Positions 1,917 through 62,851 are shown, counted from the stretch's first letter. The stretch: 64,000 nt of DNA from a virus (IMGVR_UViG_3300025141_000065:7508-71507), one strand, 5' to 3'. Program-made: numbers and translations. Notes: a model not told the origin generated them from the sequence alone.

Positions 1917-3065
1917 ATGTTTAAATTATTAACAACAACAAAGGATCAAACTATGTATCAATCACAAGTTCAATATAGATATGAGAGATGGAGTATTCAA
2001 AAAATATTAAAGTTAAAAGCAACAGGTAAATTACAAAGAGACCTTACTTATCAAAGAAACGATAAGATATGGGCAACCGAAAAAAGAAACGAATTTTGTC
2101 AAGGGTTGTTTAATTATCCTATGTCGTCTCCAATTTTGTTGGACGGACGCGTTAAAACACACTATAAGATCATTAACGGACAGCAAAGACTACACACCCT
2201 AAATGACTTGTATGAAGATAATTTAAAGTTAAAGCCACTTCTACATAAAAAGTATGGACATCAATTATCGGGCTTTTTTATTGAGTTACCAAAAGCAGCT
2301 AAAAATTTCATATTAAAAGAGAAACTTAATATAGTTATAGCGGAAACTGGATCGGATCAAGATATAATTGAACTTTATCAAAACGAAAATCAAGGAACGC
2401 CGTTAAATAGTGCAGAGATGCGAAAACCTTTAAACCATGAATTAAATGCCTTTCTCGATACTTTGCTTAATAAGCATTATATTTTTAAATATAAAGATTT
2501 AAAAAATTCAGACCCGAAAAAAGCTCCGATAATAAACGCTACACAGCATAGAGAATCATTAAGAACTTTGATTGAACAATGTTTATTGATTTTCAATCAT
2601 AGTGATATAAGAGTAAGTATTTCAAATGAGCAATTAACAAAACAAGCGTTAACGATTAATAACCAAATATTAAATCAAGAATTTGTAAGAAATATGATTA
2701 ATGCGTTTAATTATGTGGGTAAAGGGGTCGAAAAAATTAAACGAACAAATCCCGATTTAATAATAAAAGCACGTGGTCAAGGGGGTAAGAGTGGGGGAAT
2801 TCTCAGTAAAGCTCTAATTAAACATGCCTTATATTGTTATGATGTCCTACTGCAAAGGGGTTATCCAATCAAAGGCCAAGAAGAAAATTTTATGGGGTAT
2901 ATACTACAATATAAATTCGTACCAGACTTAAAGCGGAGAATGGCTGTTTATTATTCGCGTGATAATAGTGCAAAACTCCGATGGGAGGCACATCAGTTCA
3001 TGTTAAGGCGACTATTAAAAGAGAAGTGGTTAGTTCGGCCAATAAATATAAGTAAGGTCGCTTAA
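1917..3065 (+). CDS. DUF262 (ParB/Srx-fold, GmrS-like) domain protein
   Basis: YQR..W, I(N)GQQR and N.G.PL...E motifs of DUF262; no HNH domain visible. Confidence 0.75.
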   Translation: MFKLLTTTKDQTMYQSQVQYRYERWSIQKILKLKATGKLQRDLTYQRNDKIWATEKRNEFCQGLFNYPMSSPILLDGRVKTHYKIINGQQRLHTLNDLYEDNLKLKPLLHKKYGHQLSGFFIELPKAAKNFILKEKLNIVIAETGSDQDIIELYQNENQGTPLNSAEMRKPLNHELNAFLDTLLNKHYIFKYKDLKNSDPKKAPIINATQHRESLRTLIEQCLLIFNHSDIRVSISNEQLTKQALTINNQILNQEFVRNMINAFNYVGKGVEKIKRTNPDLIIKARGQGGKSGGILSKALIKHALYCYDVLLQRGYPIKGQEENFMGYILQYKFVPDLKRRMAVYYSRDNSAKLRWEAHQFMLRRLLKEKWLVRPINISKVA

Positions 3066-3092
3066 TCTATTTAATTTAAGGAGAAATACAAA

Positions 3093-3329
3093 ATGACTAT
3101 AAAAAGAAACCATAGCCCAAGTATGCACTATAACCATAATGAAACAGAAATAGCGGTTTTATTCACAGATGAATACTGCTCTTTTTACATGCCCAATGAT
3201 CCAGAGCCGATCTTTGGTATAAGACGTGAGATAGTGGAAATATTAGCGCATCAATGGCCTGATGGAACAGAGGTGTGTCCAGCTTGTGACTCGGACGACC
3301 CGAACCACACAATGCAAGGAGCAGACTGA
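3093..3329 (+). CDS. hypothetical protein
   Basis: AAGGAG RBS; C-terminal CPAC. Confidence 0.6.
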   Translation: MTIKRNHSPSMHYNHNETEIAVLFTDEYCSFYMPNDPEPIFGIRREIVEILAHQWPDGTEVCPACDSDDPNHTMQGAD

Positions 3330-3642: not shown

Positions 3643-3769
3643 CAATAGAGTATTGGTGACTAATAAACCCATAAAACGATCGACACACAGCCACGAAAAG
3701 ATAGTCCAGATAGCTACCACACCAAAGACTAACTAAAAAACGCTCTAATTTAAACAAGGACACAATACA

Positions 3770-4051
3770 ATGCTGAAATACGAAGTTACTACAGATATGG
3801 TTGAACATTACTTTGCAGGTAATTTAAAAAAATTGACTCAGGTATTCAATGGACTATTCAAAGAAAATACTAGATTGAAATCGGAGTTTATTAAAAATCT
3901 CAACTACGATATACTAGAGAGGTTTCTCAATGCTGATTGCAACATACACGAGCCGTCAGGCTGGCATTGTGAAGAGTGTTGTGATTGCCGGACTAAAGGC
4001 CAGTTAAAGGAGTGGGACTGGCCTATTGGATGTAGATATGACCATGAATAA
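3770..4051 (+). CDS. hypothetical Cys-rich protein
   Basis: AAGGA RBS; ORF in operon orientation. Confidence 0.55.
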   Translation: MLKYEVTTDMVEHYFAGNLKKLTQVFNGLFKENTRLKSEFIKNLNYDILERFLNADCNIHEPSGWHCEECCDCRTKGQLKEWDWPIGCRYDHE

Positions 4052-4262
4052 TCAAGAGCAAGAATTTGAATGTGTGTTTGAGTGTACAGGTTGTGGCTCA
4101 TATCCGACCGAACAGATAATCGAGGATGAAGGACGGCCTGTATCCTATTGTGAGTATTGTGAGATAGATATCGTGTTCGAGTGTTTACTGGTTTATAAAT
4201 CGCGCGGAGGCCACGACACATGTATAGGCACTTATCCAATGGGAGAAAAAAATGAAGTATGA
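4026..4262 (+). CDS. small zinc-ribbon protein
   Basis: CTGC and CEYC motifs; true start may be a few codons downstream. Confidence 0.5.
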   Translation: MDVDMTMNNQEQEFECVFECTGCGSYPTEQIIEDEGRPVSYCEYCEIDIVFECLLVYKSRGGHDTCIGTYPMGEKNEV

Positions 4263-4298
4263 TTGCAACATACACGAAGATGTAAATGAGTAAATTTA

Positions 4299-4307
4299 TG
4301 TTATAAT
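4299..4307 (+). promoter_or_regulatory. extended -10 promoter (TGnTATAAT)
   Basis: TGTTATAAT directly upstream of two hairpins. Confidence 0.5.
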
Positions 4308-4355
4308 TTAAAGATAGTTGATAGTAGGGGTTTAACCAGCTACTATCGTTAGGCC

Positions 4356-4403
4356 AAAGACCCTAGATGGTTTCTTATTTACTCCTCATCTAGGGTCTTT
4401 TTT
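4356..4403 (+). terminator. intrinsic terminator
   Basis: AAAGACCCTAGATG / CATCTAGGGTCTTT 14-bp stem ending in a T-run. Confidence 0.8.
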
Positions 4404-4499
4404 ATGTTATTTTAAAAATACCTCAAAAAACGGTTTGAGAAAGGCTTGAAATTGTTTTAGAAGTGTCTATGATATGTATAGGAAATAGGAGAGGTATTT

Positions 4500-4670
4500 A
4501 TGAACCCCAAAATCTCTTTGACACTGAAGGAAAACGAAGTTTATCAAATTCGCTTTAATGGAGAAATATCCATTTATGTTCCCAACTATGAACGCCAGCA
4601 GATAAACCTTTACTTCAAGCGTAAATTACAAGAGAGGCACAAATCTCAATCTAACGAGTGGATCACATGA
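4500..4670 (+). CDS. small hypothetical protein (56 aa, not in ORF track)
   Basis: GGAGAGG RBS, ATG at 4500, TGA at 4668-4670; TTGAAA-N16-TATGAT upstream. Confidence 0.5.
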   Translation: MNPKISLTLKENEVYQIRFNGEISIYVPNYERQQINLYFKRKLQERHKSQSNEWIT

Positions 4671-4791
4671 CACCGAGTCTAAGGGGCTTATTATGGCTTT
4701 GCTTACTAGGGTTTATTGTAGGCCTTTGTCAGAATTGTCTGCCAACATACTCAACACTTATCGTTTAAGCTATCAATAAGGATTTTTAATT

Positions 4792-4992
4792 ATGACAAAG
4801 AAAGCAACTTGCACTGAATGTGGCAGCGAGAATGTGAGATTGATTTTACCAGCTTTTTATGCCTATGACTCTAGCACTGGAGAATTTGAGACGCATTTAT
4901 ACAATGAAGACTGGCCTGTGTCTTATGTCTGTATTGACTGTTCTAATGAATCAGCAGACATGGATCACGTGGTGGAAATCATAAATAGTTGA
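4792..4992 (+). CDS. small zinc-ribbon protein
   Basis: CTECGSENV...CIDC. Confidence 0.6.
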   Translation: MTKKATCTECGSENVRLILPAFYAYDSSTGEFETHLYNEDWPVSYVCIDCSNESADMDHVVEIINS

Positions 4993-5017
4993 CAAGATAT
5001 TGATTCAGGTGTACCAT
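4989..5017 (+). promoter_or_regulatory. sigma70-type promoter
   Basis: TTGACA-N17-TACCAT. Confidence 0.7.
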
Positions 5018-5023
5018 AAGACT

Positions 5024-5435
5024 TAGGTCTTGGTTTCACAAGATCAAATTTAAAAAGAGAAAAGGAATTTTAACAACAAAATAATAGGTGGTTAATAAGG
5101 CTAGGATTTGATAACAGAACCGTATCCTTAGACAGACATTACAATCTTTTAAGATGTAAAGTAAACCATCCAAGATAAACTACGGTCAATGGCTTGTTAA
5201 GGCATTAACAACAACCTAGACCACAAGCGTTTTGGATTATCTGCAACTAAGCAAGTAGACAGCAACAACACCGAAAGTTAAGCAGTTGTGAATCAAGCCT
5301 AAACATTAATTGATCTTACTGGACGGCAGTTCAGCAATTAAGTTTAGAGATTACTGTAACTTATTAAAAGAGTATTTTAGCGAATATTCTTTATTGGAAA
5401 CAAGGCCTTAAATGTAGAGAAAATTCTACGGCCTA
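5024..5435 (+). ncRNA. candidate large structured non-coding RNA (family unknown)
   Basis: No ORF of 60 aa or more; downstream of a consensus promoter; many hairpins, a long-range stem (5098-5115 with 5285-5300) and a pseudoknot (5119-5124/5181-5186 crossing 5168-5175/5230-5237). Confidence 0.55.
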
Positions 5436-5580
5436 TTAGTTATTACAACTTTTGGAGGAATTAGAAATTGTGACAGCAGAAAACAAAAATATATGGGAAG
5501 TGCTTATAATTGAAAATTGTAAGCACTTAAAAAAGAAAAAAGAGAAAACATATATTTTGAGAGGCGAACCAAATTTTTTT

Positions 5581-5840
5581 GCCCGTCCCTTCCTATAGGC
5601 CTTCCACTTCCTATAAACTAGAATTTATATCCCCCCCCTTCCTATATAGACTCCCTTCCTACTTAACCTTCCACTTCCTCTAATAACAATGCCCGTCCCT
5701 TCCACTTCCATTCCTTCCTATGATGCTATGCCCTTCCCTTCCTATCTACCCCGTCCCTTCCTATCTAACCTCCTCCTTCCTATACTCCCATAATCTAATA
5801 TGCCCCCCCCTTCCTACTTCCTATGCCCCGCCCTTCCTAA
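5581..5840. repeat. polar array of CTTCC / CCCTTCCTA motifs
   Basis: About 17 CTTCC copies in 260 bp by hand count, all on the + strand, irregularly spaced. Confidence 0.9.
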
Positions 5841-5844
5841 GAGA

Positions 5845-6063
5845 TTATTTATTAGGGACTTTAACAATATACTCTCCTGTTATAAGTGAGTTATCAAATT
5901 GTTGTACTTTAACCCTTCCCACCAAACCTTTTAATGCTTGGCACGCTTCCTCTTCCTCCCCTTCCCACACTATAAAACTCATCAACGAATAGGCTCCTAC
6001 CTCGTGGCCCCTTCCTATGCTTCCATTAACTTTCTTCATTTTGTTTTGTACCCCTATTATCAT
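5845..6063 (-). CDS. hypothetical protein
   Basis: Last ORF of the minus-strand block; start probably at MKKVNG. Confidence 0.5.
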   Translation of the reverse strand: MIIGVQNKMKKVNGSIGRGHEVGAYSLMSFIVWEGEEEEACQALKGLVGRVKVQQFDNSLITGEYIVKVPNK

Positions 6064-6229
6064 TTACATACCAGCCGGAACCTTTAAACACTACAGATAC
6101 TTTGCTGATTTTTCTTTTACATGCCCTTCCACAATTCGGACAATCTGCTACCGGCTTTGAACTGAAAGACTGCTTTAACCAAAATGCCCCTTCCTCACAG
6201 TTGTCACATATATATTCATACTTAGGCAA
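6026..6229 (-). CDS. FmdB-family zinc-ribbon protein
   Basis: MPKYEY.C..C ... CPNCG ... VVFKGSGWYVND signature. Confidence 0.85.
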   Translation of the reverse strand: MPKYEYICDNCEEGAFWLKQSFSSKPVADCPNCGRACKRKISKVSVVFKGSGWYVNDNRGTKQNEES

Positions 6230-6433
6230 CTACCCCTTCCTTCCCTCTTCCAAAGCCTTTATCCTGTTCTCTAAAGCAGTTATTTTAAGATGTATCGCGT
6301 CTAAGGCTTCTAAATAATTAAAGAATGGTTCTGTCTCAATAAGTATTTGATCTATCGCTTCCTCCTGCCAGTCTTCCAACTGTTCTGTATTCTTGTATTG
6401 GGATATATCTATTATCTCCCCGTCCTTAACCAT
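6230..6433 (-). CDS. hypothetical protein, C-terminal coiled coil
   Basis: ORF with GGAAGG RBS. Confidence 0.55.
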   Translation of the reverse strand: MVKDGEIIDISQYKNTEQLEDWQEEAIDQILIETEPFFNYLEALDAIHLKITALENRIKALEEGRKG

Positions 6434-6490
6434 TACTATAACCCCTTCCTTAATATTTTTGAGGGTACTTCGCGCATTTTTCTATCTTTC

Positions 6491-6718
6491 CTACGTTAAC
6501 ATTAACTTGGTAAATAATGTTTTCTTATCTTTCTCTACTTTTATAGATCTTCTATAAATAATATCTTTTAGGATCTCATTCCAATTTAAACCCTCTTCCT
6601 CTTCCCAATTTTCTCTAGGCCATTCACCATCTAAATTTGAGTCGCGGGGAGGAGTATACTTTTTAGGAAATTCATATTCCACAGTTACCTTTATACATCC
6701 TTCATTAATATCACCCAT
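6491..6718 (-). CDS. hypothetical protein
   Basis: ORF in operon orientation. Confidence 0.5.
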   Translation of the reverse strand: MGDINEGCIKVTVEYEFPKKYTPPRDSNLDGEWPRENWEEEEGLNWNEILKDIIYRRSIKVEKDKKTLFTKLMLT

Positions 6719-11422: not shown

Positions 11423-13312
11423 TTACTTCTTTGAGATGGTTTTGATGTTTTTTCTTTTAGGTTTTACTGCTTCCCTTGAGGCTTTTGAACTAAGTAATTT
11501 AGATGCTCCGAACCCAGCTAATGCAGGCCAAAACCACTTCTCAAGCTCTAAAGTATCTTCGGTATCTTTAGAAATAGTTTTAATGTTCTTTCTTTTAGGT
11601 TTTACTGCCTCTTTTGAAGCTTTCGAACTGAGGAGTTTCCCTGCTGAGAACCCAGCTAATGCAGGCAACCAAGGAAATTTCACTAAGTCGGGTTCAGTAC
11701 CCTTTATATCTTTAGAAATAGTTTTAATATTACTCTTTTTAAATTTAGCATTATCTTTCGATGCTCTTGTACTAAGAATTTTCCCTGCAGCTAAACCTGC
11801 AAGACCAGTTACCGCTGGATTAGCTGCTAAGGCCGCTAATGCCGGTGCTATTTTTTCAATTCTCATTTTTTTAACAGCTTTTGTACCTAAAACTTTATCA
11901 GCAACTCTTTCAGCCACTACTGTGGCAGCTATAGATCCGGGGGTTAGTCCAGCTGCAGGACTTACCCTTACTTTTTTATTAATTGGTTTAGCGTTACTCA
12001 TATAATTATCCTTTTCAATAGATTTTTTCTTTAGTTTACTTCCAGCAACAGCCCCTGCTACTGCTGGCAACACGAAAGGTGCAGCTAAAGCGGCTAACCA
12101 AGGAAATTTCACTAAATCAGGTTGGGTTTCCTCTATATCTTTTTTATGTTCTTTGGTATGTGCTTTAGTCATACTTAATCGCTCTAACATTTTTTCTTTC
12201 ATAGCGGAATCCATATACGTAGACTTCATGTTTTGTCCTGCATCATTAACAACCCAAGGAGGCGAAGGATGCATCGGATCATATTCATCTATTCCTGCAT
12301 CCCGTATACTTTCTTGATCTACATCTGCAGGGAATCCATATTCAGCTAGGAATTGTCTATGTACAAGTCTCCTACCCTCTTCATTTTTTAGGGATGGGAA
12401 AGGATCTTCTCCTAAATCATCAAATATACCTTTGTTCATAAACTTAAGAAAAGATTTTGTGAAATCTATATCTCCATTTGATTTATACATAAGTTCAACT
12501 CCTTTCTCATGTGTTTCTTCTTTAGATACTAAACAACTACCATCTATACAAGAAGAAGTTGCAGCATCCTCAGCTTTTAATATCTCAAAGGAAGCACCTT
12601 GATTAACTCCCTTTTCACATACAGTTACCTCAGCAAGTTCCAATTCATCTACTTGCATTACATTTTGTAATCCTTTTTGTATGTTTTGAGTTTTAGTTGC
12701 ACTCCCAGCAATACTATAGCTTCTTAATTTACCCTCATGAATCTGTTCCATTACCCTCTTAGCAATTTTAGTATCATTCCTAAGTTCAGTAATAAAAAAT
12801 AAACCCTTATCATCTACCCCACTCTTAAAAATCTGTCCGCCCTTTGAAATGTATGCGGGTAAAGCCCAACCTACCTGTACATCAGAGTGTAATACCATAG
12901 CATTTCTTGTACGGAAATTATCCATATATTTTGTAAATGCCTTCCCTAATGCATCTGTAGTTATGAAATGGCCTTCTCTGTCAACTAACTCAATTGAAGC
13001 TGGACCACCAACTACCAAGGAATCGTCATCACCTATTTTCATTTTAGTTAATGCTTTAGAGAAAGTAGAATTATCTGGATAAGCCCTAGATAATGTAAGC
13101 ACTTCAGCAGGACTTGCTATCCCAGCTTTATAAAGTTTTTTATATTCAGTAAGAGCTGGTTCAATGTCATCTAAAGTGGTTCGTCCATCCGTAGCCTTCT
13201 CTAAAAATATAACAGGTTGGTCATTATTAATATCATCAGGCATATAATACCCAGCCCAATCTGATGGGTTTGGTATTGACGTAACTGCTGTTTGAATAGT
13301 TTCTGTAGTCAT
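11423..13312 (-). CDS. prohead (capsid maturation) serine protease with repetitive C-terminal extension
   Basis: GPAS...VDREG, MVLH, GKLRSYSIAG and EVTVCEKGVNQGA.F..LK motifs of HK97/XkdF-type proteases; located in the head module. Confidence 0.85.
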   Translation of the reverse strand: MTTETIQTAVTSIPNPSDWAGYYMPDDINNDQPVIFLEKATDGRTTLDDIEPALTEYKKLYKAGIASPAEVLTLSRAYPDNSTFSKALTKMKIGDDDSLVVGGPASIELVDREGHFITTDALGKAFTKYMDNFRTRNAMVLHSDVQVGWALPAYISKGGQIFKSGVDDKGLFFITELRNDTKIAKRVMEQIHEGKLRSYSIAGSATKTQNIQKGLQNVMQVDELELAEVTVCEKGVNQGASFEILKAEDAATSSCIDGSCLVSKEETHEKGVELMYKSNGDIDFTKSFLKFMNKGIFDDLGEDPFPSLKNEEGRRLVHRQFLAEYGFPADVDQESIRDAGIDEYDPMHPSPPWVVNDAGQNMKSTYMDSAMKEKMLERLSMTKAHTKEHKKDIEETQPDLVKFPWLAALAAPFVLPAVAGAVAGSKLKKKSIEKDNYMSNAKPINKKVRVSPAAGLTPGSIAATVVAERVADKVLGTKAVKKMRIEKIAPALAALAANPAVTGLAGLAAGKILSTRASKDNAKFKKSNIKTISKDIKGTEPDLVKFPWLPALAGFSAGKLLSSKASKEAVKPKRKNIKTISKDTEDTLELEKWFWPALAGFGASKLLSSKASREAVKPKRKNIKTISKK

Positions 13313-62301: not shown

Positions 62302-62794
62302 TCCCGTTTTTTCAAAATTTTTATTTTTTAAAAAAATTCAAAAACACCTGAAAACTATTCAGTTTTTCTACAACAGCATGATAATGTTGTTTCTCCTTAC
62401 ATAATATAGCCACTACAAGCCTTCTATACGCCTCATACAGCAATTCTTTTTACACTTTGGTTGGTTACTATTGTTTACACTATAAACGTTTCTCTACGTT
62501 AATTGATATACACAGTCTATATCAACATGAAAGGCTTTATTTCTTTTTATAATTATATTTTATCTGAGCTTGCGTTTGCTGAGAAGCATCTCTTTTTTTT
62601 AAGATAGGGGTTATTGAGCTACTGGGGGTATCTCAACCCCACAACCGGGGTCGATCAACGTACAGCGTTTTAAATTGCATTGGTAATATCATAGTATATG
62701 TTGGGTGTTTAAATTGGCTGTGCGTAGCTGCTAGATGCCTTAAAAGTGGGTTCGGTGCAGTGATAAGTTCACGACTTGATTATATATAAGATAC

Positions 62795-62833
62795 AAAAGA
62801 AAAAAGCCCTAAAATAATTAAATCTTAGGGCTT
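62795..62833 (-). terminator. intrinsic terminator
   Basis: AAGCCCTAA/TTAGGGCTT stem followed by TTTTCTTTT on the minus strand. Confidence 0.75.
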
Positions 62834-62851
62834 GATTAGTTTGTCTAAGTC

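Follow-up and report, generated by a model that had tools for sequence, protein, structure and literature searches.

A lineage-specific non-coding RNA gene, read from the + strand of a marine tailed phage with a transcript that would start near position 5024 and be processed in its leader, is our best account of the stretch described here, with a probability of roughly 55%. A sequence-only reading had proposed a phage ncRNA that could not be assigned to a family, and that central proposal holds: the stretch is non-coding, conserved above its flanks, present in RNA libraries and without an Rfam match. Several details of the original proposal, including the length of the RNA and parts of its fold, are revised below. 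Features are listed in Table 1.

Table 1. Features of the candidate RNA region (positions in the 64,000-nt window)
Feature	Position	Strand	Basis or remark
66-aa CxxC gene	4792-4992	+	directly upstream of the candidate RNA; mostly missing in the X4/X6 relative
sigma-70-type promoter-like TTGACA-N17-TACCAT	4989-5017	+	10/12 consensus matches; start placed near 5024-5026
putative leader: 5' hairpin, then A/U-rich unstructured run, possible processing zone	5024-5098	+	folding; by inference
candidate ncRNA core (~309 nt)	5099-5407	+	RNA-library contigs; MFE -67.6 kcal/mol, z -2.55
hairpin just 3' of the core, possible 3' protective or terminator-like element, without T run	5403-5434	+	folding
48-aa open frame (42-aa from GTG at 5470), behind GGAGG	5452-5598	+	judged not a gene
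14-bp hairpin, terminator-like for the - strand gene block, then CCCATATATTTTTGTTTT on the - strand	5498-5528	-	repeat scan, folding
C-rich, G-poor array, ~10-16 CCCTTCCTAT-like units	5580-5840	+	separates the RNA module from the last - strand gene; repeat scan
72-aa ORF	5845-6063	-	genuine gene with a 64-aa homologue in L220 (20297-20491); MKKVNG at 6039 is the probable start

Setting, promoter, conservation and RNA-library contigs

The source record is a 71.5-kb virus, and the window is the 64,000-nt stretch G000:C1:7508-71507 that was analysed as a whole. Profile matches (Pfam/PHROG) identify a tailed phage with an SU10-like major capsid protein, a portal, a large terminase and a prohead protease; it also encodes a family A DNA polymerase, a DnaB-like helicase, a primase and a ribonucleotide reductase. 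Small, early-type genes occupy the + strand up to 4992 and the long - strand block of structural and replication genes ends at 5845/6026, and the candidate RNA stretch is therefore the place where both blocks converge. Gene direction and GC skew both switch here. The stretch occurs in public runs labelled as marine, seawater or hydrothermal-vent metagenomes; among the matches listed there are 24 runs from 20 studies, of which 8 are RNA libraries and 3 contain half or more of the stretch's words and are thus possible sources of the record. Elsewhere in the window, a 550-nt stretch at 62302-62851 (G000 69809-70358) also lacks an ORF of at least 50 aa. The prohead protease gene (11423-13312, - strand) belongs to a large family with sources that include Tara and other metagenome collections; its N-terminal ~375 residues are 50-83% identical across 638 metagenome proteins (E<=1e-10), and their C-terminal parts differ in both length and sequence.

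The promoter-like element reported from sequence inspection is present at the coordinates given for it and shares the top score among sites in 4500-6500. TAnnnT follows at 16-18 nt after 6 of the 10 + strand TTGACA sites of the genome, this one included, and the early region has clusters of TTGACA...TAnnnT sites on each strand; judged by its sequence, the promoter would belong to the phage's early class. Such a host-type sigma-70 promoter would start an untranslated + strand transcript near 5024. No closer promoter for a start at 5099 was seen by eye, and a terminator scan found no intrinsic terminator in 4500-6500. The 5' hairpin (5026-5045) has a folding energy of -9.0 kcal/mol (z -3.93), and 5060-5100 folds weakly (-1.5 kcal/mol, z -0.59). 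A C>T change at 5045 in the X4/X6 relative turns a G-C pair of this hairpin into G-U and keeps the pairing.

That relative comes from X4 and X6, two seawater DNA runs that hold a related phage and whose assembled contigs were aligned to the window. The X4 contig (4591 nt) aligns over 4700-4777, skips 4778-4971 (194 nt) and aligns over 4972-5599; it then skips 5600-5666, aligns over 5667-5709 and continues unlike the window. The relative has lost 4778-4971 but keeps sequence from 4972 on, that is, from 17 nt before the -35 box, and the 66-aa gene therefore appears dispensable while the promoter is retained. Within 4972-5599, X4 differs from the window by 6 substitutions in 628 positions plus 4 gap letters (~99% identity), against 5/78 in 4700-4777 and 15/278 in 5823-6100, together 20/356 (~94% identity). 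This contrast of 1% with 5.6% divergence in one contig is significant (Fisher p = 2.8e-5; 7e-4 with gaps counted) and thus points to an ORF-free block, promoter included, that is held more tightly than the surrounding coding DNA.

RNA libraries contribute assembled contigs, from which strand, true ends and level are not readable, and such libraries can contain DNA. X10 has one 309-nt contig that equals 5099-5407 with 0 differences. X21, an RNA library of another study, has contigs at 5106-5257 and 5228-5401 and a variant at 5228-5379 with 10 differences. Contig limits are similar in the two libraries (5099/5106 to 5401/5407) and the contigs have no loose ends; the X4 DNA contigs continue through 4972-5599. 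In the X10 study, three further RNA runs contain a 0.21-0.22 share of the stretch's words. Contig gaps over 4700-5098 and 5408-6100 in X10 and X21 were not taken as evidence, and neither were the small-share runs X16-X24. These contigs give a weak hint of a discrete RNA species in ocean RNA libraries. As they are limited to the same interval, the likely product is the core of ~310 nt rather than the 440-540-nt RNA that had been proposed. A processing step is assumed because the start near 5024 differs from the contig start at 5099: the core would be cut out of its A/U-rich leader, its 3' end would fall a few bases after the 5367-5392 hairpin, and the ~309-nt product may then persist. The hairpin that overlaps the 3' limit of the core (-11.3 kcal/mol, z -2.39) loses one outer pair to 5404 G>T in X4/X6.

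The convergence zone and the C-rich arrays

Eleven of the genome's 16 + strand copies of CTTCCTA lie within 5589-5833, and 120-nt windows from 5574 to ~5873 (G000 13081 to ~13380) have at least 36% C and at most 8% G. The array therein has the C-rich, G-poor make-up, downstream of a transcription unit, by which Rho-dependent terminators are recognized, a likeness of composition, which by itself is no demonstration of function. It varies in the X4/X6 relative, with 67 nt (5600-5666) missing and unrelated sequence for at least 255 nt after 5709. A second array in the same genome (L018 2660-2940, G000:C1), located upstream of the window, has a different unit (CCCCTCCCTCCA-like, ~15 units) and is likewise C-rich and G-poor; it follows a + strand unit and directly precedes a TTGACA promoter. 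Because the units differ and the composition is the same, because both arrays stand at unit ends and because the array is variable in relatives, a composition-driven role, namely Rho loading on + transcripts, is favoured over protein-binding iterons. The array downstream of the candidate RNA may load Rho in a rut-like manner and stop + transcription before it enters the late genes in antisense.

Other regions of the genome have control-like features of their own. In L018 2660-3250, the TTGACA after the second array is followed by a 300-nt ORF-free stretch (+ strand folding z -7.8) in which four GAAC-N4-GTTC palindromes alternate with three copies of TTGTGA-N6-TCACAA; we take the former to be LexA/Cheo-box-like and the latter CRP-like. 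L018 4076-4968 (G000:C1) comprises 893 nt without an ORF of at least 50 aa and may be a control region or encode additional small RNAs. Its - strand has a pair of perfect, almost identical TTGACA-N17-TATAAT promoters near 4940 and 4736; more TGTGA-N6-TCACA and GAACA-type boxes also occur there, as does a GC hairpin near 4190-4217. In the unrelated IMG/VR contig L009, two 5-nt-periodic NNTCC arrays (2990-3110 and 3700-3900), similar in style to the phage's own, flank a gene beside a portal-like ORF.

The main rival to an RNA gene is that the convergence zone contains a cis-acting element, either a replication origin with a primer-type transcript or a packaging/partition site with the CCCTTCCTAT array. 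Conservation would then act on the DNA or the nascent transcript, and the RNA seen would be a by-product. This seems unlikely, yet it accounts for several observations: the conserved block (4972-5599) is wider than the RNA contigs and abuts the repeat array, the phage encodes the polymerase, helicase and primase named above, the region sits at the switch of gene direction and GC skew, and both strands fold about equally, as DNA-level palindromes would. ColE1 RNA II, the primer-type transcript of a replication origin, offers a model, since the candidate also has a sigma-70 promoter, several hundred untranslated structured nucleotides and an adjoining repeat-rich zone in a genome that encodes a Pol I-family polymerase. 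Unlike RNA II, the candidate has RNA contigs that end ~170 nt before the array, and a transcript through the array would be C-rich; persistent RNA-DNA hybrids favour G-rich RNA. The end of the RNA-library contigs well short of the array also speaks against a cis-acting site more generally. The array unit differs from that of the second array and is deleted or replaced in relatives, unlike protein-binding iterons, gene orientation explains the skew switch, and related phages do without the module altogether, which would be odd for an origin.

Fold, strand and coding potential

The comparison of folding energy with dinucleotide shuffles that had been suggested gives z -3.32 on the + strand of 5020-5470 (MFE -96.5 kcal/mol, with 0 of 100 shuffles as good), alongside the lower contrast listed for the core. 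When 105 + strand segments of 300 nt, covering the genome's first 15.9 kb, were each compared with 15 shuffles, just one had a lower z than 5094-5393 (-5.03). Individual local hairpins have z values of -2.4 to -3.9. Elsewhere on that strand, 4194-4493 has a folding z of -4.19.

The complementary segments picked out by eye in the sequence-only reading all exist, and 7 of its 9 helix sets reappear in MFE folds or the repeat scan. Recovered helices lie at 5026-5045, 5139-5159, 5168-5176/5229-5237, 5194-5211, 5299-5347, 5367-5392, 5403-5434 and 5498-5528. The proposed pseudoknot finds no support, as its 6-bp arm (5119-5124/5181-5186) is absent from the MFE and centroid structures, and a 6-bp match within 300 nt would be expected by chance. 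The long-range helix 5098-5115/5285-5300 is likewise absent from both and is broken by 5289 T>A and 5293 T>A; these changes are uncompensated, the sole X21 contig over the partner side (5106-5257) being unchanged there. The multi-stem fold is thus a thermodynamic prediction, in which the core would form local hairpins plus the 5168-5176/5229-5237 helix. Natural variants comprise 10 substitutions in the core, 3 at positions unpaired in the MFE fold (5289, 5290 and 5317) and 7 at predicted pairs. Two of the latter preserve the pair, since 5324 C>U turns C-G into U-G and 5377 U>C turns U-G into C-G, and five break it (5258, 5276, 5293, 5343 and 5404), with 0 compensatory changes in two variant haplotypes. 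Two pairs kept and five broken is about what would be expected without structural constraint, in a sample far too small to decide.

G-U wobbles had been thought to select the + strand, a point that is not borne out: the - strand has almost equally low folding z values (-2.75 vs -3.32 for 5020-5470; -2.41 vs -2.55 for the core) and 14 G-U pairs among 100 in the MFE, vs 9 among 95 on the + strand, and folding energy therefore does not pick the strand. The + strand is nonetheless favoured because the promoter lies on its side, its unpaired bases are A-rich (59 of 119 in the + fold), its AT skew is that of + strand genes (core +0.15; + strand genes +0.20; - strand block -0.145), and the transitions at 5045, 5324 and 5377 all keep pairs on it. 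An RNA from the opposite strand would be a stable 3' fragment left by read-through of the late operon past the 5498-5528 hairpin, which we regard as decidedly unlikely. The late operon does end only ~440 nt away, the contigs carry no strand information and the - strand fold of the core is as good as the + fold (-70.1 vs -67.6 kcal/mol). Between operon and core, however, stand a terminator-like hairpin and its T run (5528 to 5480, - strand); the hairpin has 14-nt arms that match at 93% and folds at -10.1 kcal/mol (z -5.25, 0 of 200 shuffles), and it fails the rule of the terminator scan. There is also no good - strand promoter beside 5407, the best sites (9/12) being at 5516-5488 and inside the core. 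Loops of a - strand RNA would be U-rich, the AT skew fits the + strand, and the C>T changes at 5045 and 5324 would give A-C mismatches.

It is very unlikely, in our estimate, that the stretch has no function at all and is spacer DNA, with a low divergence left by a recent sweep or recombination and RNA-library contigs that are DNA carry-over. Such an account draws on the small sample of one relative haplotype and one further variant, on variants that disregard the predicted pairs and on the fact that RNA libraries can contain DNA. It is hard to reconcile with a divergence contrast that arises within one contig, with a promoter of the phage's early class, with a folding z that ranks second of 105 windows and with similar contig limits in RNA libraries of two studies.

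Coding tests bear out the earlier statement that ~440 nt without a long ORF follow the promoter, as 4993-5719 has no ORF of at least 50 aa. All six frames of 4990-5620 contain 11-21 stops each; since these are mixed and mostly TAA in each frame, a hidden recoded ORF is ruled out. Natural indels of one or two bases (+2 after 5192, +1 after 5275, -1 at 5351 and -2 at 5483), none a multiple of three, likewise exclude a coding function. A role as a long regulatory leader of the 42/48-aa ORF, alone among the ORFs here in having a ribosome-binding site, is highly implausible, even though GGAGG stands 10 nt before the GTG at 5470 and 5408-5599 is conserved as well as the core in X4/X6, because the deletion at 5483 shifts the frame of that ORF in a ~99% identical relative and because the ORF matches itself alone among 5.8 billion proteins and has no Pfam or PHROG match. 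A hydrophobic 45-aa ORF at 5036-5173 (- strand, TTG start) was considered as a type I toxin and found no support; the RNA contigs do not cover it.

Homologues, known RNA systems and possible roles

The Rfam covariance-model search that had been named as a check returned no family: Rfam 15 gives 0 matches at the gathering score over the 64-kb window and the genome's first 7.6 kb, and at E<=10 only unrelated low scores appear, the regional best being BTnc060 with 18.7 bits against a cutoff of 228.9. ARAGORN finds 0 tRNA or tmRNA genes in the window, and a tmRNA, suggested by GGC...GCC ends, is ruled out by that result and by the lack of any tmRNA family even at E<=10. Neither 6S RNA nor another Rfam sRNA family gave a covariance-model match. 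Terminal inverted repeats of a mobile element were ruled out by eye, with only 8 of 17 positions matching.

Searches for homologues in wider collections were also negative. A distant blastn search of the phage collection found no match to the stretch. Core-word scans returned 0 and 119 loci in viral contigs, 0 in metagenome contigs and 79 in genome contigs, and all 198 loci are chance matches, with a longest alignment of 46 nt around the seed. A CCCTTCCTAT-type repeat-unit word gave 15 single matches in viral contigs, all unrelated. The neighbouring 459-aa protein has three relatives with 79-81% identity, and neighbour-protein baits recovered no relative locus that spans the RNA region; one 2.3-kb contig ends short of it. 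A protease-family bait drew 312 IMG/VR relatives, of which 80 loci were kept; these contain no homologue of 4972-5599, with three chance-level blastn rows (E 0.17-0.45) and nothing at E<=1 in nhmmer. Five whole related records contain exact matches of 12-18 nt only, and no homologue.

Gene order among relatives gives the same picture. At the 17 related loci examined, genes past the protease keep a single orientation through most of the next 10 kb. The closest IMG/VR relative, L220, with a 97% identical major capsid protein, is the sole locus with matching neighbouring small genes, and its small - strand genes are syntenic up to a zinc-ribbon (FmdB-like) gene. Where the array and the RNA would be, it carries a 308-aa gene, followed by the homologue of 5845-6063 and by further genes, so it has no syntenic counterpart of the RNA module. 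The complete relative G002 is organised differently. Because L220 has other genes in that place, the module, as far as sequence comparison can tell, appears dispensable for the phage family and specific to a narrow lineage. A literature search by topic, rather than by sequence, found no description tied to the candidate RNA in the text portions covered. Large catalogues of predicted phage RNAs exist (e.g., PMC10690425). No known family fits, and the stretch is a candidate for a new family of phage-encoded stable RNA.

Known RNA systems resemble the candidate in part. ROOL (~580 nt) and GOLLD (~800 nt) RNAs are often found beside tRNA genes. Like them, the candidate is phage-carried, ORF-free and predicted to be multi-stem; unlike them, it has a core of ~310 nt (at most ~415 nt from promoter to hairpin), no Rfam match, no tRNA genes in the window and no homologues in which a conserved ornate fold would show. 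ROOL and GOLLD are both Rfam families of large phage-associated RNAs (PMC12286853). Placing the candidate in their size class, as was done initially, is not upheld by a core that lies well below it and has no tRNA genes nearby.

The protein-sequestering stable RNAs 6S RNA, CsrB/RsmZ and CrcZ provide a second comparison, since the candidate is also promoter-driven and untranslated and seems to outlast its neighbours. An excess of AACAA (6 observed vs 2.0 expected, reached in 16 of 1000 shuffles in a post hoc test) was counted as a further likeness. Hfq-type ARN triplet runs show no enrichment (they cover 52 nt vs 40.6 +/- 15 in shuffles), and the four CsrA-type GGA motifs in the core are judged by estimate to be about chance level. 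Unlike 6S RNA, the candidate has no predicted central bubble, and no Rfam match. IMES-type RNAs are Rfam families of non-coding RNAs that are highly represented in marine metatranscriptomes. The candidate shares with them a marine source and a short, isolated contig in metatranscriptome assemblies; it differs in having no Rfam match and a known genomic home, a tailed phage.

For the favoured + strand RNA gene, our guess is a trans role in which the stable, structured core would bind a host or phage protein, as a decoy or scaffold. The guess follows from the conservation of primary sequence, not of pairing alone, and from antisense matches in the phage genome that reach 14 nt at most (E 0.09 for the longest). 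Neither the ARN and GGA motifs nor the antisense matches gave a lead to a protein partner or target. A more far-reaching proposal, which is possible though doubtful, is that 5099-5407 founds a new class of structured phage RNA, accumulates far above the phage mRNAs in infected marine bacteria, and captures a host protein or primes or organises replication together with the array, as a module made mobile by recombination. Such mobility, from one phage lineage to another, would account for a conservation higher than that of the surroundings.

To our knowledge, few phage-encoded stable RNAs have known roles, and thousands have been predicted with no sign of expression. The candidate described here joins a clear promoter, proof of its non-coding nature, conservation above that of neighbouring genes and a footprint in RNA libraries from two independent studies. 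The C-rich, G-poor arrays that stand where transcription units of this phage end deserve attention in their own right, and the candidate RNA could reveal a new way for marine phages to handle their hosts.
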